Of a stretch of 64,000 nucleotides of DNA, positions 6,826-44,647 are shown in pieces. Source of the DNA: Escherichia coli (lineage in GTDB: Bacteria; Pseudomonadota; Gammaproteobacteria; Enterobacterales; Enterobacteriaceae); the NCBI RefSeq assembly GCF_050320075.1, contig NZ_CP190018.1; one strand, written 5' to 3'. The position numbers were made by a program, and so were the translations under genes. Position 1 is the first letter of the stretch; each line of letters starts with the position of its first letter. The notes under the pieces are model-generated. The model made no database searches. It was not told where the DNA came from and saw nothing but the letters and a program-made list of their open reading frames with translations.

Positions 6826-8523
6826 ATGGAACCAAAAACAAAAAAACAGCGTTCGCTTTATATTCCTTACGCTGGCCCTGTACTGCTGGAATTTCCGTTG
6901 TTGAATAAAGGCAGTGCCTTCAGCATGGAAGAACGCCGTAACTTCAACCTGCTGGGGTTACTGCCGGAAGTGGTCGAAACCATCGAAGAGCAAGCGGAAC
7001 GAGCATGGATCCAGTATCAGGGATTCAAAACCGAAATCGACAAACACATCTACCTGCGTAACATCCAGGACACTAACGAAACCCTCTTCTACCGTCTGGT
7101 AAACAATCATCTTGATGAGATGATGCCTGTTATTTATACCCCAACCGTTGGCGCAGCCTGTGAGCGTTTTTCTGAGATCTACCGCCGTTCACGCGGCGTG
7201 TTTATCTCTTACCAGAACCGCCACAATATGGACGATATTCTGCAAAACGTGCCGAACCATAATATTAAAGTGATTGTGGTGACTGACGGCGAACGTATTC
7301 TGGGGCTTGGTGACCAGGGCATCGGCGGGATGGGCATTCCGATCGGTAAACTGTCGCTCTATACCGCTTGTGGCGGCATCAGCCCAGCGTATACCCTTCC
7401 GGTGGTGCTGGATGTCGGGACGAATAACCAACAGCTGCTTAACGATCCGCTGTATATGGGCTGGCGTAATCCGCGTATCACTGACGACGAATACTATGAA
7501 TTCGTTGATGAATTTATCCAGGCTGTGAAACAACGCTGGCCGGACGTACTGTTGCAGTTTGAAGACTTCGCACAAAAAAATGCGATGCCGTTACTTAACC
7601 GCTATCGCAATGAAATTTGTTCTTTTAACGATGACATTCAGGGCACCGCGGCGGTAACGGTCGGCACACTGATCGCAGCCAGCCGCGCGGCAGGTGGTCA
7701 GTTAAGCGAGAAAAAAATCGTCTTCCTTGGCGCAGGTTCAGCGGGATGCGGCATTGCCGAAATGATCATTGCCCAGACTCAGCGCGAAGGATTAAGCGAG
7801 GAAACGGCGCGGCAGAAAGTCTTTATGGTCGATCGCTTTGGCCTGCTGACCGACAAGATGCCGAACCTGCTGCCTTTCCAGACCAAACTGGTGCAGAAAC
7901 GCGAAAACCTCAGTGACTGGGATACCGACAGCGATGTGCTGTCACTGCTGGATGTGGTGCGTAATGTAAAACCAGATATTCTGATTGGCGTCTCAGGACA
8001 GACCGGGCTGTTTACGGAAGAGATCATCCGTGAGATGCATAAACACTGTCCGCGTCCGATCGTGATGCCGTTGTCTAACCCGACTTCACGCGTGGAAGCC
8101 ACACCGCAGGACATTATCGCCTGGACTGAAGGTAACGCGCTGGTCGCCACTGGCAGTCCGTTTAACCCAGTGGTATGGAAAGATAAAATCTACCCTATCG
8201 CCCAGTGTAACAACGCCTTTATTTTCCCGGGCATCGGGCTGGGCGTTATTGCTTCCGGCGCGTCACGTATCACCGATGAGATGCTGATGTCGGCAAGTGA
8301 AACGCTTGCTCAGTATTCGCCACTGGTGCTGAACGGCGAAGGTCTGGTACTGCCGGAACTGAAAGATATTCAGAAAGTCTCCCGCGCAATTGCCTTTGCG
8401 GTTGGCAAAATGGCGCAGCAGCAAGGCGTGGCGGTGAAAACCTCCGCCGAAGCTCTGCAACAGGCCATTGATGATAATTTCTGGCAAGCCGAATACCGCG
8501 ACTACCGCCGTACCTCCATCTAA
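6826..8523 (+). CDS. maeA: NAD-dependent malic enzyme
   Basis: ORF 6790..8523 trimmed to [23 protein letters not shown] (565 aa). Confidence 0.96.
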
Positions 8524-8656: not shown

Positions 8657-9667
8657 ATGAAGGCTGCAGTTGTTACGAAGGATCATCATGTTGACGTTAC
8701 GGATAAAACACTGCGCTCACTGAAACATGGCGAAGCCCTGCTGAAAATGGAGTGTTGTGGTGTATGTCATACCGATCTTCATGTGAAGAATGGCGATTTT
8801 GGTGACAAAACCGGCGTAATTCTGGGCCATGAAGGCATCGGTGTGGTGGCAGAAGTTGGCCCAGGTGTCACCTCATTAAAACCAGGCGATCGTGCCAGCG
8901 TGGCGTGGTTTTACGAAGGATGCGGTCATTGCGAATACTGTAACAGTGGTAACGAAACGCTCTGCCGTTCAGTTAAAAATGCCGGATACAGCGTTGATGG
9001 AGGGATGGCGGAAGAGTGCATCGTGGTCGCCGATTACGCGGTAAAAGTGCCAGATGGTCTGGACTCGGCGGCGGCCAGCAGCATTACCTGTGCGGGGGTC
9101 ACCACCTACAAAGCCGTTAAGCTGTCAAAAATTCGTCCAGGGCAGTGGATTGCTATCTACGGTCTTGGCGGTCTGGGTAACCTCGCCCTGCAATACGCGA
9201 AGAATGTCTTTAACGCCAAAGTGATCGCCATTGATGTCAATGATGAGCAGTTAAAACTGGCAACCGAAATGGGCGCAGATTTAGCGATTAACTCACGCAG
9301 CGAAGACGCCGCCAAAATTGTGCAGGAGAAAACTAGTGGCGCTCACGCTGCGGTGGTAACAGCGGTAGCTAAAGCTGCGTTTAACTCGGCAGTTGATGCT
9401 GTCCGTGCAGGTGGGCGTGTTGTGGCAGTCGGTCTGCCGCCGGAGTCTATGAGCCTGGATATCCCACGCCTTGTGCTGGATGGCATTGAAGTGGTCGGTT
9501 CTCTGGTCGGCACGCGCCAGGATCTAACCGAAGCCTTCCAGTTTGCCGCCGAAGGCAAAGTGGTGCCGAAAGTCGCCCTGCGTCCGTTAGCGGACATCAA
9601 CACCATCTTTACCGAGATGGAAGAAGGCAAAATCCGTGGCCGTATGGTGATTGATTTCCGCCGCTAA
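8657..9667 (+). CDS. adhP: Zn-dependent alcohol dehydrogenase, propanol-preferring
   Basis: ORF trimmed to [14 protein letters not shown] (336 aa), with AAGGAGG upstream. It carries the GHEGIG and CGHCEYC zinc motifs. Confidence 0.96.
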
Positions 9668-31940: not shown

Positions 31941-32510
31941 GTGAGCCGATTCATCCCTGTCGAATTACACCATGCCAGCCGTCTGTTAAATCATGGCCCA
32001 ACTGTCTTGATCACCAGTTTCGATGAGCAATCCCAGCGGCGTAACATTATGGCAGCCGCCTGGTCAATGCCGGTGGAGTTTGAACCGCCACGCGTGGCGA
32101 TTGTGGTAGATAAATCGACATGGACCAGGGAGTTGATTGAACGTAATGGTAAGTTTGGCATCGTTATCCCGGGTGTTGCAGCAACTAACTGGACGTGGGC
32201 GGTGGGAAGTGTGTCGGGGCGTGATGAAGATAAGTTTAATTGCTATGGTATTCCGGTTGTGAAAGGTCCGGTGCTTGGTTTGCCGCTGGTCGAGGAAAAA
32301 TGTCTGGCGTGGATGGAGTGTCGCCTGCTACCTGCAACTTCCGCGCAAGAAAAATACGATACGCTATTTGGCGAAGTGGTATCTGCAGCGGCAGACGCAC
32401 GAGTATTTGTCGAAGGCCGCTGGCAGTTTGATGATGACAAACTCAATACGTTGCATCATTTAGGTGCTGGCACGTTTGTTACCAGCGGCAAGCGTGTTAC
32501 GGCAGGTTAA
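31941..32510 (+). CDS. yddH: Flavin reductase-like domain protein
   Basis: A 189-aa ORF with a GTG start, MSRFIPVELHHASRLLNHGPTVLITS. Confidence 0.88.
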   Translation: MSRFIPVELHHASRLLNHGPTVLITSFDEQSQRRNIMAAAWSMPVEFEPPRVAIVVDKSTWTRELIERNGKFGIVIPGVAATNWTWAVGSVSGRDEDKFNCYGIPVVKGPVLGLPLVEEKCLAWMECRLLPATSAQEKYDTLFGEVVSAAADARVFVEGRWQFDDDKLNTLHHLGAGTFVTSGKRVTAG

Positions 32511-32513
32511 GCA

Positions 32514-32741
32514 TTACATGCTGTAACCGGGTTTCTTTATCAAAGCCTCCATTTGGGGCGCGATTTCGGCATCCCAGATAGCTTGCCAAGATTCTGGTTG
32601 AATCTGCTGTAGAGAAATGCTTATCGAGCTATCTTTACTGTTCAGATGGCGAATAATAACGTCGGTAATATCTGCAGCAAGTGCTGCTTTTTGTTGTTCG
32701 TCCAGTTCACGCGGAAAACATTTAATGTCTATGTGCGGCAT
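32514..32741 (-). CDS. pptA: Tautomerase (4-OT family)
   Basis: ORF trimmed to [21 protein letters not shown] (catalytic Pro after Met), 75 aa. Confidence 0.9.
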
Positions 32742-33046
32742 GATTGTGCTCCTTTTGAAAGATGTCAGTAAAATTAACACACGTTGTGAATGTCGTGTGT
32801 CCGGTAATGCGTTTTTACGGCAATAATGCCTACTTGAAATTGTACATATTTGTACTACACACTTTTAAATAAAGCGCCAATGAAAACGTTAACTTGCAGA
32901 ATATATTCTTCGCCAACATGCCATTAAGAAAACATCAATTTCCCGGCTTGCCAATTTGTTAACGCCCATTATAGTTATTCTTGCCCTCACTAAAAATTTT
33001 CATCCGTAATTACCCCCAATAAAAATCCATTCTGGAGACGCTTAAG

Positions 33047-35023
33047 ATGCAGCTTAATCATATCGTTAAAAGTCTGCTAATAACGGGATTATTCACCACC
33101 AGTTCTTTACCTCTCCTCGCGGCGGAAGCTCCTAAAGACGCCACCGCAGCCACGCAACAAGCAAACAATTTACTCTACAACCAGTTGCCGTTTGCCGATA
33201 ACACTGACTTTACTGATGCCCATAAAGGTTTTATTGCCCCTATCCCTCAAGACGTGATTAAGGGCGAACAAGGGAATGTTATCTGGGATCCACAACATTA
33301 CGCTTTTATCAAAGAAGGCGATAAAGCCCCTGATACGGTGAATCCGAGTTTATGGCGTCAGGCGCAACTGATAAATATCAGCGGGTTATTCGAAGTAACT
33401 GAAGGTGTCTATCAGATTCGCAATCTCGATCTATCAAATATGACCATCATTGAAGGCAAAGAGGGTATTACCGTCGTTGATCCCCTTGTTTCAGCAGAAA
33501 CAGCCAAAGTGGGTATGGATCTCTATTACAAAAATCGCGGCAAAAAACCGGTAGTGGCGGTTATCTATACACACAGTCATGTCGATCACTACGGTGGTGT
33601 TCGTGGCGTAATTGATGAAGCTGACGTTAAATCAGGCAAAGTTAAAATCTATGCGCCAGCCGGATTTTTGGAGGAAGCCGTTTCCGAAAACATCATGGCT
33701 GGCAATGTTATGAGCCGACGAGCCAGTTATATGTATGGCAACTTATTGAAACCTGATGTTAAAGGCCAGGTGGGGGCTGGACTGGGAACGACTACTTCAG
33801 CAGGAACAGTCACGTTGATTGCTCCTACTAACTACATCACCAAAACCGGACAAATAGAAACTATTGACGGGTTGACTTATGATTTCCTGATGGCGCCAGG
33901 TTCTGAAGCGCCTTCTGAAATGCTGTGGTTTATTGAAGAAAAGAAACTGATCGAAACCGCTGAAGATGTCACGCACACCCTTCATAACACCTATTCGCTG
34001 CGTGGGGCTAAAATTCGCCAACCGCTGCCGTGGTCAAAATATATTAATGAAGCTCTCAATTTGTGGGGTGATAAAGCCGAGATTATTCTCGCTCAACATC
34101 ACTGGCCAACCTGGGGCAACGATAACGTGGTCAAACTGCTTAAAAGCCAGCGTGATTTGTATCGTTACATCAATGATCAAACTCTGCGCATGGCTAATCA
34201 AGGGATGACCCGTGATGAAATTGCCGCAAACTTTAAACTGCCCTCTTCACTGGCTAACACCTGGGCGAATCGCGGCTATTACGGTTCGGTAAGTCATGAC
34301 GTGAAAGCAACTTACGTGCTTTATCTCGGCTGGTTTGATGGTAACCCCGCGACGCTTGATGAACTGCCGCCAGAAGAAGGCGCAAAAAAATTCGTCGAGT
34401 ATATGGGCGGTGCTGATGCCATTTTACAGAAAGCCACACAGGATTATGACCAGGGTAATTTCCGCTGGGTTGCCCAAGTTGTTAGTAAGGTGGTGTTTGC
34501 CGATCCAAACAACCAGGCAGCGAGAGATCTGGAAGCTGATGCGCTTGAGCAGTTAGGCTATCAGGCTGAATCTGGGCCGTGGCGTAATTTCTATCTCACT
34601 GGTGCACAGGAATTGCGTAATGGCGTACAAAAATTACCAACACCAAATACTGCCAGCCCAGACACCGTGCGTGCGATGACGCCGGAGATGTTCTTTGATT
34701 ATCTTGCCGTCCATATTAATGGTGAGAAAGCGGCAGATGCCAAAACCGTGTTGAATTTCGATTTTGGTGAAGATGGCGGCACCTATAAAGTGGAGCTTGA
34801 AAATGGTGTTCTCAATCATACCGCTGGTGTAGAGGCTTCGGATGCTGATGCCACTATCACTCTGTCTCGTGATGTATTGAACAAAATTGTACTGAAAGAA
34901 GAGACGCTGAAAGAAGCCACGGCCAAAGGAGATGTCAAAATTACTGGCAATGAGGAAAAACTCAACGAGCTGTTAGGTTATATGGATAATTTTGAATTTT
35001 GGTTCAATATAGTGACACCATAA
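33047..35023 (+). CDS. Periplasmic alkyl/aryl-sulfatase, SdsA1/YjcS type (metallo-beta-lactamase fold plus SCP2-like C-terminus)
   Basis: A 658-aa ORF with GGAG upstream and signal peptide ...SSLPLLAAEAPKD. It has the HSHVDHYGG (HxHxDH) motif and the typical C-terminal tail ...GDVKITGNEEKLNELLGYMDNFEFWFNIVTP. As I recall the K-12 layout, it is not present at this locus there. Confidence 0.85.
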   Translation: MQLNHIVKSLLITGLFTTSSLPLLAAEAPKDATAATQQANNLLYNQLPFADNTDFTDAHKGFIAPIPQDVIKGEQGNVIWDPQHYAFIKEGDKAPDTVNPSLWRQAQLINISGLFEVTEGVYQIRNLDLSNMTIIEGKEGITVVDPLVSAETAKVGMDLYYKNRGKKPVVAVIYTHSHVDHYGGVRGVIDEADVKSGKVKIYAPAGFLEEAVSENIMAGNVMSRRASYMYGNLLKPDVKGQVGAGLGTTTSAGTVTLIAPTNYITKTGQIETIDGLTYDFLMAPGSEAPSEMLWFIEEKKLIETAEDVTHTLHNTYSLRGAKIRQPLPWSKYINEALNLWGDKAEIILAQHHWPTWGNDNVVKLLKSQRDLYRYINDQTLRMANQGMTRDEIAANFKLPSSLANTWANRGYYGSVSHDVKATYVLYLGWFDGNPATLDELPPEEGAKKFVEYMGGADAILQKATQDYDQGNFRWVAQVVSKVVFADPNNQAARDLEADALEQLGYQAESGPWRNFYLTGAQELRNGVQKLPTPNTASPDTVRAMTPEMFFDYLAVHINGEKAADAKTVLNFDFGEDGGTYKVELENGVLNHTAGVEASDADATITLSRDVLNKIVLKEETLKEATAKGDVKITGNEEKLNELLGYMDNFEFWFNIVTP

Positions 35024-35037
35024 ATTTACTGCATACC

Positions 35038-35060
35038 GGGCAGGTATCCTGCCCTTTTTT
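35038..35060 (+). terminator. Rho-independent terminator after the sulfatase gene
   Basis: GGGCAGGtatCCTGCCC followed by TTTTTT. Confidence 0.8.
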
Positions 35061-35069
35061 GGTTAAAAA

Positions 35070-36167
35070 ATGGCTGAACGAAGAAAAACTCATCACTCAT
35101 GGAAAACCCGCCGCGATATGGTTATTCGCGGCATGACGATTAGTTTGCCATGGTTTGCTTTTATCAATGTCAGTTTTGCATTGATAATTTTGCTGCGCCG
35201 TGTTCTGTTTAATGACCTTACTCCACCCTGGTTAAATGAAAAAAGCCTTATACATTCTATTGATATATCTGCAACGGGTATTCTGCTGATTTGCAGTGGT
35301 TTACTACTCATCCCTCGGCAAAAAACATTACCTATCCAGGTGCTATTAGTTGCCCTGAGCCTGCTATGGTCATGGTGTAGTTATCACTTTATTGCGTACT
35401 GGACGCTGCAGTTTGCTTATCCACTATGTGTATTATTAATGCTTAGTGGCGTTGTCGCACTTTATTTCCATACCCCATCATTGCTCGCATTTGTCATTCC
35501 CTTATGGTTCACCACTCCAATAGCGAGTCTTATGCTTAATCAACAGATCAATATTCATTTTGCTGTTGTATGGTGTATTTTTTCACTGGCGCTATATGGT
35601 GGGCGACTCATTTTGTTACGTTGGTTTGAAGAAGCATGGGTACAAAACAGTTATAACAACCAGTTAATTAATCGCCTTGATGCATTAGCACATCGTGATC
35701 CTTTAACTGGGATAGCAAACCGACGTGCAATGAACAGTATCTTACACGACGCGATGGATAACGGCGGGTCATTTGCTCTTATTATGCTGGATGTCGATTT
35801 TTTTAAACGTTACAACGACACTTACGGGCATCCTGCTGGGGATCGTTGTCTAATACAAGTTGCCGACGCTCTACAGCGTTCAACTCGCCAGTCGGAGGAT
35901 GTTGTTGTCCGTTATGGTGGCGAAGAGTTTGCCATCATACTTTTTAATGCAACATTGCCGGAAGCAGAGACGGTAGCAGCCAGAGTGAAGCAAGAACTTA
36001 AACTGGCAGCTATCCCACATCAGGCATCTGCTGTTAATGCATTTGTTACGGTTAGTCAGGGGATTACCTGTTCTGCTCCCGCAAAAACGGCTGAACAAAT
36101 TATTTCAGATGCCGACGCTGCGTTATACCGGGCGAAAGAAAGTGGGCGAAATCGATGGGCTTTATAA
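35070..36167 (+). CDS. Membrane-anchored diguanylate cyclase (about 6 TM N-terminal domain plus GGDEF domain, active-site GGEEF)
   Basis: A 365-aa ORF. The hydrophobic N-terminal half is followed by RDPLTGIANRRAM...DVDFFKRYNDTYGHPAGD...RYGGEEFAIILF. The start is uncertain: ATG 35070 lies only 10 nt after the terminator T-run, and in-frame alternative ATGs are at 35118 and 35133. Confidence 0.85.
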   Translation: MAERRKTHHSWKTRRDMVIRGMTISLPWFAFINVSFALIILLRRVLFNDLTPPWLNEKSLIHSIDISATGILLICSGLLLIPRQKTLPIQVLLVALSLLWSWCSYHFIAYWTLQFAYPLCVLLMLSGVVALYFHTPSLLAFVIPLWFTTPIASLMLNQQINIHFAVVWCIFSLALYGGRLILLRWFEEAWVQNSYNNQLINRLDALAHRDPLTGIANRRAMNSILHDAMDNGGSFALIMLDVDFFKRYNDTYGHPAGDRCLIQVADALQRSTRQSEDVVVRYGGEEFAIILFNATLPEAETVAARVKQELKLAAIPHQASAVNAFVTVSQGITCSAPAKTAEQIISDADAALYRAKESGRNRWAL

Positions 36168-36224
36168 GCATTAGGGGACTGGACAGATTACGTCTCTCCT
36201 CGCTTAACAAGGGCTGACGGAGGG

Positions 36225-37061
36225 TAATAATTGTCTATAGCTATCTTCTTAGCGATGTCTTTCTGGTATCACATTGGATCGGTGCAATTATTTTTCCTTT
36301 AATACCCATTATGTTAAGAAATTCAGAAACAGCTGTAATCTCATTGTTTTTTTCATTCGTCTTGATCTTCCAAGGAATCTGACTGTGCATTATTGAGAAC
36401 ACACTAATAACGTGAATCGCTCCCTTGCGACGACTCTTGTCATAAGAGTACCGGAGCGTTTTTCCATCAATTGCAATGACGTCTTTATCATCTGAAGAAT
36501 GGCAGTCAAGCATCCAGTTAATAAAGCACTCATAAAATTTTTCAGGACTGATACAGGATACAACTCTGGCAATGGTATCGTGAACAGGAATACCATTATC
36601 AAAATCACCATATTGCTTCAAAAAATCGAGATGTGTTTCCCCAAAATCCTCTATATCTTCCCAGCCTTCTGCACCCGAAATAACGGCACAAATAGTCAAC
36701 AGTAGAATATCCGATAATTTATGTTCCACTTTCCAGGCTTGTCTGTAATCGGGGATAATAGAAATATGTCCCATCAATTTTTTAAGTTCCATTTTGTTCT
36801 CCTTAATTATGTAAGGAGTATTTGATCATGTATACGCAATAAAAAACAGCTTCAGGTAATGAGGAATATCTCAATTGTTAAACATAAAATGCGAATTGTC
36901 TAGTACAAAAAAGCAGCGTTACGTGATCTTTCCGTGGATCGTCAAATTGTTCGAGAGAAAATACCAACATGATGGATTTTACTGTAAAAGTAATGTCGTA
37001 GTTTAAAAACTCATCATCCGGTAAAGCCTTGTGGGGCGTGGGCTTTCATACTTTTACCCTG
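36225..37061 (-). mobile_element. H-repeat / ISAs1-family element, 3'-truncated remnant
   Basis: The outer end ...GGGCTTTCATACTTTTACCCTG at 37061 matches the inverted repeat of the complete copy at 43800. The transposase frame degenerates after about residue 165, and homology (…QKDIAKKI in a shifted frame) stops near 36225. Confidence 0.75.
36241..36792 (-). pseudogene. ydcC: H-repeat (ISAs1-family, DDE) transposase N-terminal fragment
   Basis: [62 protein letters not shown]... The 183 aa compare with about 378 aa for a full-length H-rpt protein. The end is frameshifted. Confidence 0.8.
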
Positions 37062-37377
37062 ATGTCTGCTATACGCCGGACACCCTTTACGTAGCATTCG
37101 GAATTCACCCGTAAATTTATCACGGCGGTATCACGAAACCTCCGGTTCTGATGCCGCTTAGGACTAACGACACGTCAACACAGGTTCGGGTTTATTCATT
37201 TCACTGTATCTCATATAATCTGAGCACTCCCCCTGCGCTCGCTACTATGACTCTTTACCACAGCAACCGGGGTTGTTTGGGATCGGCTTTCAACAGCAGA
37301 TCCCGGTGGCTATTGCAAGTAAGTCTACTTTCCACATCAGTGTTACTGACACAGAAAATAATGAGTTATGATCCTTG

Positions 37378-37863
37378 TCATATTTTTAATATAGCCCCAT
37401 GAGCTATAGGATCAAAACCTTCTAACCATGAGGTGTTTTTATCGAATAATGCATCTGTTATATTTATATCGCCATATCTATCACATAATAAATTAGCGCC
37501 ACATAAGTCAGCACCAGAAAAATTTGAATCTTTAACGTCTGCATTGCAAAAGGTTGAATTAGTTAATATAGCACCCTCAAAGTTTGCACCTATTGACCTT
37601 GAATTACTAAAGTCACTTCCAGTGAAATCTGAGTTATTAAGAATAGCGTTCATCAGAGCCGCATTGCGAAAGACAGCATTTCTAGTTGATGTATGTTGAA
37701 TCATTACATTTCTTAAATGGGAATTTTCAAATTTCGCCCCATCAAGACAATAACCATTGAGGATGGCACGATGTAGATCCATCCCGCTAAAATCATATCC
37801 AGCAAGAGTGGTACTATCTATATCAAGAAATTTATTGGTTATTAAAAACGCGATTCTTATCAT
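37378..37863 (-). CDS. ydcD: Pentapeptide-repeat protein, candidate RhsE immunity protein
   Basis: A 161-aa ORF with about 20 consecutive A(D/N)LXX-type pentads ([30 protein letters not shown] ... [10 protein letters not shown]). Its ATG overlaps the rhsE stop (ATGA). Confidence 0.85.
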
Positions 37864-40800
37864 CTATTCCCCCAATCATCTAACTCCGGAAAAATTTGGC
37901 TAAACGGATATAGTGGTGCCGATAATGGACGCGTACCTGGCCGCTCAGGAGGAAGTTTATCACATAACAGACCCGCAACCATCCTGTGATTACCATTAAC
38001 AATCACATTCCCATCCATATCAACCGGTGGTGCTCCACTACCATCTTCCAGCATTTGTACGTAGTGAGCTACTACGGGTACTGAGACTTTTTGTTGTACT
38101 GTCAACAAGGGACTGTTGGCCACAACCATCCTGATGTTTTCAGGTGTCGTAGGTAAACATTTAGTCTTCTCTTGACTAAAGGTATCATCCCACAATTTTG
38201 TTAAACCCATCACTGCCTGTTGTCTGTATTTATCCATGGGGTCAGCAATCAACCAAGATGGACCTGACTGCTCTATGGAATCTTCTCCGGAGAGACCCAA
38301 CGGATCTATCTTAGTAGTTGGATTCAATGGATACTGATACAGGTTCCATGCACCTCTTAGCCCAATGGGATCCTGGGTGATATACCGCCCCTGCAACGGG
38401 TCATAGTACCGGTTGCGGTTATAGTACAGCCCCGACTCCTCATCATACTGCTGCCCCGGCAGACGGTACGGCTGTTGCAGTTGCTGCGCGCTGGTTTCGC
38501 CCAGCAGGTTTCCCCACTCGTCATACTCCCCCTGCCACGCCGTTTCCCCTTCCGGGCTGATGAGCGCCTGCGGCAGCCCCCGGTGGTCGCAGTGGTAAAG
38601 ATGAAGTGTCCTCTCCGGGATGTATTCCGCCTCCATCTGGTTTTTCATCTGTTCCGCCGTCAGCCCGCACTGCTGAAGCCATGCCTCACTCTCCGCACTC
38701 ACCGCACCCGCGCGCAGTTCCCGCTCCAGCCTCCCCAGCATCACCGACAGCTCCGCCGGTAGCGTCACCCCCGTGTCCTCCTGCAACACCTCCGCCAGAC
38801 TCCGGTGCCGCGCCTTCGCCTGTTCACCATTCTCTGTTTCGATTCTGATGAGCGGCGTGAAGCTCCCCGGCTGGTATACCGTCTGGATACGCGTGGTGCC
38901 GGTCTGTACCGTCGTCAGCCTGTCACCGTCCCACCCGTACCAGGTCTCCTCCGGTTTACGCGACAGCGACATCCACCCCGTCAGGTCACGCTCCCGCCGC
39001 CACACCCGTTTCCCCGTCCGGCGGCCCAGCGGGTCATAGAGGTAGCGGCTCTCCACCTGTGGCTCGCCGTGCTGTATCCGCGTGTAGAACACCAGGCGGT
39101 GCTGGCTGTCGTAATGGTAGTGGTGCGTCCGCTCGTCGTGCATCCGTATCACCCCTTCCGGGATACGGTCCGTCTTCTCCGCCAGCCTGCCGTATTCATC
39201 GTAGCGGTAGACATAGTGCGCATCTTCCGTGATGCGGTTATCCGGCCACGCCGTGAAGGTGCTGTCCGGGTGCAGTTCCGGGTCCGGCAGCCGGTTTCCT
39301 GCCGGGTCCGTCGCATACGGGATATCGATATCCAGGTTCGCCGCCGTGGTGTGAACGCCCGTCAGTCTTCCCGTGTCGCTGTAACGGTACTTCCGGCTCT
39401 CCTGCGGGCCGCTGATGCGCACCAGTTGCCCGTTATCGTTCCACGTATACTCACGGTCAAGCTGCGGAAGGTTCAGGTGCCTGCTCCGGAGCTGCCCTGT
39501 GAGGGTGTACGCCGTGGCCTGTTCGTACCCCGCTGTACTGCCCGCCCCGCCGAAGCTGCGGGCCGTCTCACGGTGCAGCCGGTCCCGCGTGTACTCGACC
39601 AGCGGCGTTCCGCCCAGCTTCATCCCCGCAAGATAACCGCTGCCATACGTCAGCCACTCCACCGGCGGCAGACCGTCCGGCTCCTGACGGGTCGCCAGCC
39701 CCTGTTCGCTGTAGACGTGCCTCGTCTCATGCTCCCACAGCATCTCCCCCGTCTCCTGGTTCTCCACCGTCTGCCGTTCGCCCGTCAGGCGGCCTTTATC
39801 GTCATAGCCGTAGTGGACCGCCACACGGTGGCCTTCGCTCAGGTGGCTGATTTCTGTCAGCCAGCCGTGGTCGTCATACTGCCACTGCTCCGCCGGGTCG
39901 CCGTTCACCGTCCGGTGCGTGATGCGCCCGGCGTCATCGTAGTACCACTGCGTGACCTGCCCCTCATCCTCGCTGCGGATGAGCTGCCCTGTGGCGCTGT
40001 ACCGGTAACGCTGTGTCCTGCCGTCAAAGCCGCGCTGCTCCGTCAGCCTGTCCACCGGGTCATACCGGAACGTGGACTGGCTGCCGTTCTCGTTGGTCAG
40101 CACGGTGATGCGCCCGGCGGCGTCATACTCCATGCTGCGCGTCAGTCCGCCCTGCGTGGTGCTGACGGCCTTTCCCCACGCATCATACTGTGTCTCACTC
40201 CGGCTGCCGTTCGGGGCAATGATAGCGGTGAGGTCGCCTGCGGCGCTGTACTCATAACGGGTTTCACGTCCCTGCGCATCCTTCTGACTGACCAGTTGAC
40301 CACGCGGGTTATAACTGCTGTAAGTGCTGATGCCTTCCTCCCGGTGAACCGCCGTCCTCTGACCGTACCGGTCGTATTCATACCGCGTCGTGTACCCTGA
40401 ACAGTCCGTAAATGCCTGAAGCTGACCGTACCGGTTTCGCGTTATTCTCCGCCTCACCCCGGTTCCGTCTTCCACCGCACAGGGCAGGCCACTGCGGGAA
40501 GAATCATAAAACCAGCGCGTAATGTTACCGTTGCGCGAGACCTCTTCCGCCAGCCTGCCCTGACGGTCATATTTCCGGCTGCGGCGCAGCCCGTCCGGGT
40601 ACGTCACTGACGTCAGTTGCAACTGGTTGTTGTAACCATACCGTACCGTCCTGCCGTCCGGCAGTATCACTGAAGTCAGCTTTCCCGACGCCATATGCAG
40701 CCGGTACTCCGTCCGCCGTCCCGCCGCATCCGTCTGCGCCTTCAGCCTCCCCGCCTCATCATACTCGCTGCGGGTGATGCTCCCGTCCCCATACTCCTTC

Positions 40801-42071
40801 TTCACCACCCGCTTCAGGCCGCCCTCGCCCTCCGTGTACAGCACCTCCCGCCGGTTCAGGCTGTCCGTGATGGTCACGCGGTCCTGCCCGTACTCAAAGC
40901 GGTAGTCCAGCCCCTCCGGGTTGACCTGCTCCGTCACCCGACCGGTATCATCATACCGGTAGCGGCTCTCCGGCCTCCCCGCATAATGGTGCGCCACCAT
41001 CCGCCCGGCGTGCTCCGCATCATAAGTAAACCCGCGCACCTGCGTCCCGCTGCGGTCATACACCGCCCGCAGTTCTCCGCTGGCCGTGTACGTGTAGCGC
41101 GCCAGCGGCGCAGTCGGCAGTTCATCCGGGTATGCCGGGTCGTGTGTCAGCCATACCGCCTCCAGCCGGATACCGTTATCGGCACCGTACTCTGTACCGG
41201 TGGGCAGCGTGTCGGGGAAAAACTGAGAAGAGGAAACAGAACGGGGACTGGCCGGAGAAGATAAAGAAGACTCGCGCTGTTTACGGAAGGCTTTCGCCCG
41301 CTGCGCCTGTGTGGTCAGCGCCAGATGAAAACGGCGGCCCGCGCCGTCCGTCACCCCCGTCACCGCGCCCGCCGCTTCCCCCTCTGCCGCCCGGTGGAAG
41401 GCCAGCGTCCGCCCGAAGCCGTCCACCACGCCCGTCAGCACCCGGTATGCGGGCGGCTCCGGCGGCAGCACCTCGTCCGCCTCCGGCACCCGCTCCGGCC
41501 AGCCGAGTATCCACCACGGCCCCTGAAGGCTGTTTGTCGCCAGGTACACATGCGGGCTTAAGCGGAGACTCTCCGGCAGCACCTGCCAGAGCGCGCTTAG
41601 CGGCTGCGAACTGTGCTGCTCCGCCACCCCGCCCCTTGCCAGCCAGAACGACTCGCTGCGGCTGTAGCTTATCTCGCCGGGAAACAGCGGCTCAAAGTGA
41701 ATGCTCCTGCCGCCACTGTCGTTGAGTATCAGTTCCCGCTCATGAACCTGTAAGCGGATATCGAAGGGCGCTTTCCAGCCGGGACCAAACACCCCCACCG
41801 GCGCGGGTGTCCTGGTCCGGTAGCTGCTGTAGGCGCGGGAAAGAATAAACGGCAACGGGCCGGGCAGCGCAAGATCCGTCTCGCCCGGCAGCACCTTCGC
41901 ACCCAGTAGCGGGTTCACCGGGTTACCCTTCTGCTCCTCCACCGGGCTGTTGGGACACACCGAGCAGGCCACTCCCGTCGGCGCACCTATCAGCACCCCC
42001 GCTGAACCCTGCACAATATCCAGTCCCTTGCGGGTCATATCGCCCTGTCGCGCCGCCGGTTTTCCGCTCAT
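37860..42071 (-). CDS. rhsE: Full-length Rhs polymorphic toxin (N-terminal PAAR-like domain, YD-repeat shell, variable C-terminal toxin tip)
   Basis: A 1403-aa protein starting [16 protein letters not shown]...[12 protein letters not shown]. It has many YD/RY repeats, and the core ends at ...[39 protein letters not shown]. The core is GC-rich, and the last roughly 430 nt are AT-rich. Confidence 0.93.
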
Positions 42072-42090
42072 GGTTTATTCCTTAAATTAT

Positions 42091-42282
42091 TTATGGTTTT
42101 ATTCTGAGTGCAATCCATACTGATTCATAACCAGTGAATAAGATTTCCCCGAATAATCTATATAAATTAGCGAAGTCCTCTTCACTAATTAACCGTAAAA
42201 TCCCGTACCAATGAAATATAAAAATAACCACCCACACAAATTTATTGCAAATATTATTTATTATTGTATATACATCATTCAC
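42091..42282 (-). CDS. yncH: Small hydrophobic protein upstream of rhsE
   Basis: A 63-aa ORF, MNDVYTIINNICNKFVWVVIFIFHWYGILRL..., ending 19 nt before the rhsE ATG. The K-12 positional equivalent is yncH. Whether it is really coding is uncertain. Confidence 0.55.
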   Translation of the reverse strand: MNDVYTIINNICNKFVWVVIFIFHWYGILRLISEEDFANLYRLFGEILFTGYESVWIALRIKP

Positions 42283-42482
42283 TGAACGTTCTCAAACTGC
42301 ATACCTTAGAACCATCAATTAAAGCCACAACAAAAAAAATCGATTACTTTATGTCGCATGACAAATATGAATTACATATTAATCAACCTTAAAAACAATC
42401 ATCTCTTATAATTAACAGCATACCATGAGAAACACAAAATCAATTTACCATGCATACCAGGAGCATAATTAACCTCTCACCG

Positions 42483-43800
42483 CAGGGCGAAATCATGAAG
42501 GCCCGCAGCCAGCAAGGATTAGAGAAAGGTATTCATTCTTACGTCCTGCCCGCTTTTGCTTGCGTTTAATACCCGCTTTAAAGCTATTCTCTGCGGTCAG
42601 TAAATTCATCGCGATATGTCGACAAACTGCCAGATTTTCTCCCGCTTCTCCACGAACAATCTGGCATTCATCTTCCCGCATCCCCATATCAAGTCGCCAG
42701 TGCAGTTGATTTTCTACCGACCAGTGTGCTCGTGTTGCTTCCAGGAGTTCTTTCGCCGTAAGCGTCACCGAACTTATGTAGTAGCGAAGAATACACTTCT
42801 CTGATTTCACCGCTGTTTCTCCTTCCTGTCTGCTCGCCAGCACTATTCCTATCGTGCTCAGCTCTGACCATTCATAAGCTAAATCACCCAGAGCGGTTAA
42901 ATCATGGCTCACAATGCAGCATCGTGTATCTTCCCGTCCATGCCCTTTTTCCTGCGTGCTGTAACTGTCATACCTCTCACCCAGCCACATTGTCGGCGAG
43001 TACCCGTTATCAAACGCCTCCGCTAATTTTCCCTGATTTCCTTTCAGCGCCAGCAGGTAACCGGCTTTCTTTTTCAGAATTTCACGGGCGATTATATGCT
43101 GGCAACCCATTGCATCCAGCGTGACCAGACACCCTTTTAATTCCAGCAACTGGAGCCGTTCCGGGATCGCCGTTATCTCATTCGATTTTGCCCCTGTTTT
43201 CACCTGCCCCAAAACCAGACGATTTTCTGCGCTAAAAGCACTGACCCTATGGATCACGGCATTACGTTTCGATTTATCGTAAGTACCCCGTAATGACTTA
43301 CCATCAATCGCCACAACAGAGCCTTCAGACAACGTGTGACAGTCCTTCATCTACTGGATAAAAAGGGGCTGTAATTGTTTTGCTGAAATCATTCCCATCA
43401 CTCGGGCAATCGTGTGATGGGAGGGGGTGCCATTTTCAAAATCACCATACAGGCGTAACCATTCCAGATGCTCCTCACCAAAATCAGCAATTTCTTCCCA
43501 TCCTTCAGCGCCACCGATAATGGCGGTGATCGTCAGAAAAAGGATATCCGCCAGGCTGTAACTGGTTTTCCAGGACTGGCGATAATCGTGAATAATTGAA
43601 ATTTGATCCAAAAGGCTTAGTCCGTTCATGGTGTGCTATCCATCAAAAAGAAAGGATAAGATCACACTGAAATAAGATGGTCAAATTGATCGAAAAAAAA
43701 GATCAACATGATGGGTTTTACGATAAAAGTAATGTCGCGATTTAAAAATTCATCATTCACCAAAGTCTTGTGGGGCGCGGGCTTTCATGCTTTTTCCCTG
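42483..43800 (-). mobile_element. Complete H-repeat / ISAs1-family element (1318 bp)
   Basis: It has imperfect 24-bp terminal inverted repeats. One is CAGGGCGAAATCATGAAGGCCCGC at 42483. The other, the reverse complement of 43777..43800, is CAGGGAAAAAGCATGAAAGCCCGC. No clear target duplication was found. Confidence 0.8.
42493..43629 (-). pseudogene. ISAs1-family transposase interrupted by one in-frame amber codon
   Basis: Track ORFs 43351..43629 and 42493..43350 are contiguous in one frame: ...QLQPLFIQ-TAG-MKDCHTLSEGSVVAIDGKSLRG. The remnant copy has W at the equivalent position (FINWMLDCH), which implies TGG to TAG. Confidence 0.85.
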
Positions 43801-44040
43801 ATACGCTACCGCTCTGCCCTGATAACATGATCTGCACGGCGCTATCATATCGACATATTTCTCTACATGCGAAAGGATGTTTTATTTTCGGATTATATTA
43901 AATTGATATTTCATATAAAAAACGAGATTACATAAATCATATAAATAATTGTACCAACTTTAATTACCATTCATAGCAAACAAATGGATGTCCAGTTAAC
44001 TACGCCAGTGATTTATTAACATTAATCTCCGGCATTATTG

Positions 44041-44647
44041 TTAAATAATGGCATTCCTTTTTAGTATTTCTTGTAACGTTGGTATCGGACATACAGCATC
44101 AGCAATCGCACTGATATTCGCGGCATTATCTTGAAACCATTCATGCCCCGGTCCCCATATGCGCATAACGCAGAGATAAGGGTAGCTGATCGCCAAACGC
44201 ATAAGGTTCAGCAGTGAGCTACGAATTCAACCAGATATAAAACGATTTTCGATATTCAATAACATTCTTCTTTAACTGTTCGGGTGCGTCAGGAGCCCAA
44301 CGCTCAGGGTAATCGGCGAAAGTGAATGTTGGATAGACATTAGCAACCAGCCAGACCAATAGCCGTTGAAACTGCTGACGTTCGGCGCGCCCAACCGGTG
44401 GCGCAAGGTCCGGGCGACGATCGAGAACCATCAATGCAATCGCCGCTGTCTCCGTCATAATCTCGTCATTTTCCAGCGCCAGTGTCGGAATCTGACACAA
44501 CGGGTTCAGGGTTTTCAATAACTCGCGTGAGGTTCCCTCGTGGTCAAAACCACTGACATCAACGAACTGATAAGGAATATCAGCCAGTGTTAGCATCAGC
44601 TCACTGATTGTAGAGCCCCATCCGGGTACGCCATACACCTTAATCAT
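44041..44647 (-). pseudogene. yncG: Glutathione S-transferase homolog, decayed (nonsense plus frameshift)
   Basis: The 142-aa ORF stops at TAG 44219..44221. The same frame continues LTAEPYAFGDQ..., and after a frame change reads WGPGHEWFQDNAANISAIADAVCPIPTLQEILKRNAII* ending at 44041. This is the missing GST C-terminal domain. Confidence 0.8.

Follow-up and report, generated by a model that had tools for sequence, protein, structure and literature searches.

An alkyl sulfatase and putative DgcY gene pair between pptA and yncG of Escherichia coli as probable ancestral DNA trimmed by H-repeat-bounded deletions

We analyzed a 64,000-nucleotide (nt) stretch of Escherichia coli DNA (contig NZ_CP190018.1, assembly GCF_050320075.1), here called the window, in which two genes lie between pptA and an Rhs island ending in a truncated H-repeat (H-rpt). 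The first encodes a predicted periplasmic alkyl sulfatase of 658 amino acids (aa), the second a predicted membrane diguanylate cyclase of 365 or 349 aa. An earlier note on this DNA had placed an SdsA1/YjcS-type sulfatase and a 365-aa GGEEF protein at this position, with which the open reading frames (ORFs) and Pfam matches agree, and had suggested that the pair arrived, or was kept, through a rearrangement linked to H-rpt, replacing the distal half of that element. Comparison across genomes points in the opposite direction. With good confidence, we consider the pair to be ancestral chromosomal DNA between pptA and yncG, the Rhs/H-rpt island to be the intruder and E. coli K-12 to be a deletion variant. 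That the pair is the resident is suggested by genomes free of the island, synteny in outgroups, divergence resembling that of the flanks, a nested series of deletion endpoints, the presence of H-rpt at these endpoints, sulfatase relics and a clean boundary on the pptA side.

Module presence or absence and module junctions were defined across 5426 complete E. coli genomes. Between 438 and 440 genomes (~ 8%) carry it: 343 with the junction seen in the window, where the module meets a crippled H-rpt, 87 without any island, and about ten with other junctions. The K-12-type junction is found in 2266 of the 5426 genomes, and the remaining deletion classes together make up about half, by an estimate based on 60 records sampled at even intervals. 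The LD91-1-type junction accounts for ~ 20% by the same sample estimate, its genome-wide count being unusable due to inflation by the joining of H-rpt and pptA pieces in K-12-type genomes. The earlier note had named a universal module, with K-12 as the deletion variant, as the outcome that would make the pair ancestral; the K-12 part of this is upheld, while universality is not. In total, 902 places match the module, one of them on a record classed as a plasmid. In strain M21170 (NZ_CP133919.1, hit H31), a copy of the insertion sequence (IS) IS1A lies within the stretch matching window positions 32300-33400, from the yddH 3' end to the sulfatase 5' end.

In WP2-W18-ESBL-08 and SMS-3-5 (phylogroup F), the genes run pptA, sulfatase, cyclase, yncG, ansP, and Rhs, VgrG and H-rpt are all absent. 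The stop codons of the cyclase and yncG touch in island-free genomes. WP2-W18-ESBL-08 also harbors an IS621 between yddE and nhoA (locus L004, 3922-4902). The same island-free order recurs outside E. coli proper. Among the best 80 sulfatase loci, kept from a longer listing, it is displayed by L016, which was deposited as E. coli, has flanks diverged by ~ 11% and represents a separate species. E. whittamii carries yddE-nhoA-yddH-pptA-sulfatase-cyclase at the same locus. In at least eight Citrobacter species, the sulfatase (87-92% aa identity) resides inside the nhoA-yddH...pptA/yncG neighborhood, without the cyclase. Citrobacter loci L010, L012-L015, L021 and L022 adopt the order yddH, sulfatase, pptA, with pptA in the place that the cyclase takes in Escherichia, pointing at a local rearrangement between the genera.

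The module has diverged in step with its flanks, both within E. coli and toward the outgroups. Within E. coli, identity is 94.7-96.2% for the flank and 97.1-97.8% for the sulfatase. Toward the outgroups, it falls to 88.6-89.8% for the flank, 91.9-95.5% for the sulfatase and 93.6-94.2% for the cyclase. Between species, the protein identity of the cyclase (93%) is about the same as its DNA identity, unlike that of the sulfatase.

Genomes without the module display distinct endpoints of homology on the pptA side. At least eight were distinguished, at window positions 36064, 33116, 32974, 32830, 32791, 32570, ~ 32530 and 32473; the one at 32830 is the K-12 type, and the one at 36064, represented by one class, falls inside the cyclase gene. 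Those at 32791, 32830, 32974 and 33116 lie within or slightly past the intergenic region between pptA and the sulfatase (32742..33046, 36% guanine + cytosine (GC)). Five of all these endpoints (K-12, L1PEag1, IMT16316, F9792, A21) are met by a full 1291-nt H-rpt whose right end is intact, and two (LD91-1, PU-1) by a truncated H-rpt. All junctions inspected are bounded by an H-rpt copy, in line with the earlier proposal that presence or absence of the module is tied to this element. Remnants of the sulfatase persist in genomes that have lost the pair. In IMT16316, the sulfatase ORF survives with its first 70 nt. F9792 (locus L007, 7192-7258) holds 67 nt from the 3' end of the gene, equivalent to window 34902-34968 at 88% identity and located between the pptA-side endpoint and a full ISEc1/H-rpt, and this placement indicates at least two successive deletions in its lineage.

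The course of events that would account for these features starts with a sulfatase gene and a cyclase gene as old Escherichia chromosomal DNA between pptA and yncG. Later, an effector island of the Rhs (or VgrG) kind, with H-rpt at its end, would have entered at the boundary between the cyclase and yncG. In most E. coli lineages, deletions from the H-rpt of the island would then have run leftward by varying distances, removing part or all of the pair and sometimes pptA as well, with K-12 as one such deletion class. In the window, the neighboring H-rpt itself would have lost ~ 0.5 kb and its transposase frame, leaving the pair intact. A smaller and more speculative idea is that the pair may survive mainly where no active H-rpt lies beside it, that is, where there is no island or where the H-rpt is crippled and unable to promote adjacent deletions.

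The junction in the window can be described at the level of single bases. The crippled H-rpt (ISAs1 family) occupies 36242..36936 on the minus strand. From 36936 down to 36242, it matches K-12 H-rpt positions 8368..7673 at 91% nt identity (blastn), so that, of the 1291 nt of the element, the left terminus and everything up to position 696 are covered. A minus-strand ORF of 183 aa (36241-36792) contains the Pfam domain DDE_Tnp_1_assoc, the N-terminal domain of ISAs1/H-rpt transposases, and is 86% identical to K-12 YdcC through residue 169, after which the alignment runs out of frame (blastp). The frame decay that the earlier note had seen at about residue 165 is therefore real. The end of homology to H-rpt, which that note had put near 36225 and ~ 60 nt from the cyclase stop, exists as well, yet clear nt homology stops at 36242, 74 nt from that stop. 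A complete H-rpt would comprise 1291 nt, both termini and a transposase of ~ 378 aa; here, the frame is lost, and all that may be left of the right terminus is a diverged stretch of 82 nt. This stretch, the edge of the Rhs/H-rpt island (36160..36241, minus strand), aligns weakly with the right terminus of the K-12 H-rpt (8982..8899), with a local alignment score of 38 against 18.8 +/- 3.1 for shuffled sequences (maximum 31). The window element therefore resembles an H-rpt that kept its two termini and lost ~ 0.5 kb from within.

On the other side of this edge, homology between the window and the island-free genomes stops at 36159, eight bases ahead of the cyclase stop, so that the island supplies the last two cyclase codons (...RWAL* in the window, ...RWEK* in island-free genomes). 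The same 82-nt edge and H-rpt breakpoint are found in E. whittamii at 92% identity (locus L028, 9104-9362), where the H-rpt harbors an extra internal deletion beyond the shared breakpoint, followed by the start of another H-rpt copy. An edge and breakpoint common to both indicate that the junction is either old or was exchanged between species. Within E. coli, the crippled-H-rpt junction is present at 100% identity in the 343 genomes, which come from many hosts. The divergent strain MEW has this junction too, with different island content.

These junctions allow weighing of the opposite scenario, in which the pair would be a horizontally acquired module whose entry, by an H-rpt-associated rearrangement, cost a full, K-12-like H-rpt its distal half. 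Its patchy distribution (438 of 5426 genomes), its GC content below that of the flanks and its direct contact with a truncated mobile element would all suit such an origin. However, a search of the pptA side of the module for mobile-element flanks revealed no IS-like sequence or repeat, and no such sequence stands between pptA and the module. In the 87 island-free genomes and the diverged outgroup, the module stands without an H-rpt in its vicinity, and in island-free genomes core genes adjoin it to the left and right. Gene order at the locus is shared with E. whittamii and Citrobacter, sulfatase fragments remain in genomes without the module, and module divergence follows the flanks. Moreover, one insertion cannot convert the K-12 state into the window state, as K-12 additionally lacks ~ 220 nt of the spacer between pptA and the sulfatase. 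Acquisition through H-rpt, as the earlier note had it, is contradicted by the island-free genomes, the outgroups at the same locus and the sulfatase relics, and we regard it as highly improbable.

Several points nevertheless weigh against an ancestral pair lost by deletion. Carriers amount to only ~ 8% of the complete E. coli genomes, and the GC content of the module is 43-46%, compared with 52% in the flanking core genes. The best 80 sulfatase loci, kept from a longer listing, include no Escherichia species besides E. whittamii and the L016 lineage (no E. albertii, E. fergusonii, E. marmotae or E. ruysiae), while a separate search detected the sulfatase in some E. albertii strains. Given that the Citrobacter locus has no cyclase, an older transfer may have brought this gene to the sulfatase. 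The number of independent deletion events is an estimate from the distinct endpoints, and they may have arisen by transposase-driven adjacent deletion, by recombination of one H-rpt copy with another or by the exchange of whole alleles of the island. Finally, dgcY, the cyclase gene as annotated (35118-36159 compared), differs from its counterparts in L003, L004, L005 and L090 at 4-6 positions in 1042 nt (99.4-99.6% identity). In the same lineages, the yddE-pptA flanks differ by 4-5% and the sulfatase by 2.2-2.9%. Such near-identity may point to spread by recombination or to a sweep more than to plain vertical inheritance.

The last point leads to a variant in which the pair is ancestral, yet homologous recombination through the conserved flanks had a large share in where it is found in E. 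coli today, bringing the pair or a whole island allele back into lineages. The 5-6 differences per 1042 nt of cyclase among lineages with 4-5% flank divergence would be explained in this way, as would the perfect identity of the crippled-H-rpt junction in 343 genomes and its occurrence in MEW beside other island content. The adjoining sulfatase, with its 2.2-2.9%, shows ordinary divergence, which argues against such exchange. We hold a large contribution of recombination to be rather unlikely, though a good deal less so than acquisition, and it is compatible with, not exclusive of, an ancestral pair trimmed by deletions.

The sulfatase (33047..35023, plus strand) belongs to the type III, metallo-beta-lactamase fold enzymes according to Pfam and the Protein Data Bank (PDB) matches. 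Pfam recovers Lactamase_B (69.8 bits), Alkyl_sulf_dimr (210.7 bits), Alkyl_sulf_C (151.8 bits) and SCP2 (28 bits), that is, the three-domain architecture of a metallo-beta-lactamase core, a dimerization domain and an SCP2-like C-terminal domain. The best PDB matches are 7TL5 (1188 bits, residues 29-658) and PSdsA (4NUR, 1033 bits); further matches are YjcS (4PDX), Pisa1 (4AV7/2YHE) and SdsA1 (2CFU), with 2CFU, 4PDX and 4NUR aligned over the full length. The binuclear zinc motif HxHxDH is present in THSHVDHYGG at residues 176-185, aligned with 7TL5, 4NUR, 4PDX and 4AV7. On inspection of the sequence, the N-terminus, MQLNHIVKSLLITGLFTTSSLPLLA followed by AEAP, resembles a Sec leader of ~ 25 residues, and the crystallized chains of 4NUR and 7TL5 begin at sulfatase residues 26-29, right after this leader-like part. 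Judged by homology, the enzyme would be exported to the periplasm, where its two-zinc center would hydrolyze primary alkyl sulfates such as sodium dodecyl sulfate to alcohol and sulfate. Orthology with K-12 YjcS was considered and rejected, as 49% aa identity and a different locus indicate a paralogue. Orthologues across Enterobacterales reach 83-92% aa identity among the loci listed. Two sulfatase copies within a few kb, with 78-81% and 84-85% aa identity to the query, were observed at L041, L054, L060, L065 and L077 (Raoultella, Kluyvera, Pseudocitrobacter and an enterobacterium).

The cyclase gene (35070..36167, plus strand) starts at ATG 35070 for a 365-aa product or at ATG 35118 for the 349-aa product annotated by the Prokaryotic Genome Annotation Pipeline (PGAP). 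Pfam assigns MASE5 (150.8 bits) and GGDEF (165.1 bits) domains, and about six hydrophobic segments are apparent, whereas a PDB search returned no match to the first ~ 170 residues. The GGEEF sequence at residue 283 lies in RYGGEEF (281-287), which is invariant in 12 homologues and represents an intact GG(D/E)EF motif. The canonical RxxD inhibitory site (I-site), which would lie five residues ahead of the GG(D/E)EF motif, is not present: the segment reads R-Q-S-E-D-VVVRY-GGEEF, with the Arg four residues ahead of the Asp instead of three, and an R-x-x-E/D-D pattern replaces RxxD in the cyclase homologues as well. By homology, the protein would sit in the inner membrane through MASE5 with ~ six helices and would make cyclic di-GMP (c-di-GMP) at its intact GGEEF site, without the canonical RxxD feedback.

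The two possible starts can be compared across homologues. The 16 codons upstream of the annotated start (35070-35117) encode an M..R..W-x-T-R..MV motif that is kept in homologues of 50% identity from Enterobacter, Lelliottia, Atlantibacter and Pseudenterobacter. Because this N-terminal motif is conserved, the annotated 349-aa start appears too short by 16 residues, and the true product is probably of 365 aa.

The earlier note had guessed at an accessory cyclase of the DgcX or DgcY type, of which DgcY is the likely one and DgcX was rejected (see below). The window gene is 99.5% identical at the nt level to that of a 349-aa GGDEF protein of SMS-3-5 at the same locus (WP_000236738.1). DgcY is tabulated as ACB15888.1, 349 aa, under an SMS-3-5 accession, and none of the K-12 cyclases in the same table has 349 aa (PMC12355678). 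Since the SMS-3-5 protein at this locus and the tabulated DgcY agree in length and strain, the window cyclase is very probably DgcY. The supplement of PMC5635171 contains no mention of DgcY, and a full-text literature search for MASE5 returned nothing relevant. Both proteins of the pair belong to well-described families, and the cyclase, as DgcY, is already catalogued under a name of the Hengge/Povolotsky nomenclature.

Whether the two genes form a unit is a separate matter. Between them lies a GC-rich hairpin followed by a T-run (35038..35064, plus strand), detected by a terminator scan and RNA folding (-13.5 kcal/mol, z = -2.4) and resembling a terminator or an attenuator, with the first possible cyclase start 6 nt past it. 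As the hairpin with its T-run leaves no room for a promoter, the cyclase is most likely expressed by partial read-through from the sulfatase promoter. Adjacency of the two genes on the same strand is also observed in Enterobacter, Atlantibacter, Lelliottia, Leclercia and Pseudenterobacter, and the pairs found outside Escherichia likewise have a hairpin at this place behind the sulfatase stop. None of the probed Escherichia flank genes is found at these non-Escherichia loci.

One could imagine that the pair constitutes one functional circuit, in which the MASE5 cyclase senses alkyl sulfates or the released fatty alcohol and switches on biofilm formation. The recurrence of the cyclase immediately 3' of the sulfatase, on the same strand and with the hairpin in place, across six genera including Escherichia, together with two further metagenome loci of the same arrangement, speaks for such a link. 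Set against this, the cyclase adjoins the sulfatase at only 13 of the best 80 sulfatase loci listed, and a sulfatase lies upstream in only 2 of the ~ 10 full-length metagenome homologues of the cyclase with enough upstream DNA. The other metagenome cyclases neighbor unrelated genes, for example those for a copper amine oxidase, for LysR and GntR regulators, for an ABC transporter and for an amidase. The hairpin between the genes is terminator-like, and no experimental data on such a circuit were found in the searchable literature. An obligatory operon was set aside, as most homologues of either gene occur without the other. We consider the circuit improbable, and give slightly less credence still to its broader form, a conserved two-gene surfactant-response unit of enterics in which MASE5 reads alkyl sulfates or a membrane-active alcohol and conveys this to c-di-GMP and biofilm. 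A functional link of some kind between sulfatase and cyclase is possible.

In the window, the genes follow the order narW, narV, yddE, nhoA (minus strand), yddH, pptA (minus strand, 32514-32741), the 658-aa ORF, the 365-aa ORF, the H-rpt remnant and the Rhs island. A RefSeq record of the identical locus labels the products 'alkyl/aryl-sulfatase', 'GGDEF domain-containing protein' (349 aa) and 'ISAs1 family transposase, frameshifted, incomplete'. Upstream of the sulfatase, a promoter scan picked out a sigma-70-like -35/-10 pair at 32948-32975 on the plus strand (TTGCCA-16-TATAGT, 10/12 match); sigma-70-like matches of this kind are not enriched over shuffled sequences. An Rfam scan of 32400-37400 detected neither a riboswitch nor any other RNA element within the sulfatase-cyclase module or upstream of it.

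Beyond the crippled H-rpt, the rest of the inserted island extends over 36937..44043 (minus strand) up to the stop of a frameshifted yncG at its far edge (44044-44647, minus strand), as delineated from ORFs, Pfam, tblastn and the annotation of the identical locus. Between the left end of the H-rpt and the nearest ORF of the island, 37202-37310 (minus strand) matches the Rfam family group-II-D1D4-2 with 48 bits (gathering score 36, E 1e-7); with no D5/D6 match nearby, this suggests a fragment of an intron lying within the Rhs island. That ORF, which encodes pentapeptide repeats (37378-37863, minus strand; ORF list and Pfam), overlaps the stop codon of the 1403-aa Rhs core protein (37860-42071, minus strand; ORF list and Pfam). 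The C-terminal ~ 200 residues of the Rhs protein have no Pfam match, and the pentapeptide-repeat protein could plausibly confer immunity to a toxin tip not described so far. A second ISAs1 copy, a pseudogene at 42493-43629 (minus strand; annotation and tblastn), is distant, with 50% aa identity to YdcC, and is split by an internal stop.

The significance of these results is modest, as they open no long-standing question. They correct a K-12-centered view of the locus: the RhsE locus of K-12 would be the derived, deleted form, and DgcY an ancestral leftover rather than an import. The locus also offers a natural series of at least eight H-rpt-bounded deletion endpoints for an element whose activity in E. 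coli has so far been hard to demonstrate. The alkyl sulfatase neighbor could guide a search for the signal of MASE5, and the recurrent pairing is the best remaining lead.

Among known systems, the accessory cyclase DgcX of E. coli O104:H4 and enteroaggregative E. coli has 443 aa, a MASE4-GGDEF architecture and an intact RxxD I-site, and its gene always adjoins lambdoid prophage DNA, mostly at attB (PMC4287979, PMC10459773). Like the window protein, DgcX is an accessory membrane-bound GGDEF cyclase absent from K-12. It differs in its locus, its link to a prophage, its MASE4 domain and its intact RxxD. Identity with DgcX was rejected, as the window protein carries MASE5, has 349 or 365 aa, reads RQSED in place of RxxD and has no prophage beside it. 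From the SMS-3-5 protein, its presumed DgcY counterpart, the window copy differs at the C-terminus (...RWEK in the former, ...RWAL in the window), where the island edge replaced the last two codons.

The sulfatase shares its three domains and the HxHxDH motif with SdsA1, YjcS and PSdsA (2CFU, 4PDX, 4NUR) and with the uncharacterized 7TL5, and like them would have an exported mature chain from about residue 26. It is closest to 7TL5 and PSdsA, not to YjcS.

The RhsE/H-rpt (ydcC) locus of K-12 and the window have in common the site between yncG and pptA, an H-rpt of the same 1291-nt family (91% nt identity) and an Rhs core upstream. As the earlier note had stated, K-12 carries a full-length ydcC (1137 nt) directly beside pptA, 99 nt away with nothing between. 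Its full H-rpt has its right end 11 nt past the ydcC stop and abuts DNA upstream of pptA at window position 32830. The window, in contrast, holds a crippled H-rpt against the cyclase and keeps 3.3 kb that K-12 lacks.

Adjacent deletions anchored at an insertion sequence have one fixed end at the intact terminus of the element and variable ends in the neighboring DNA. The H-rpt series resembles them in combining a fixed intact terminus with variable other ends, and differs in that some of its junctions have truncated H-rpt copies.

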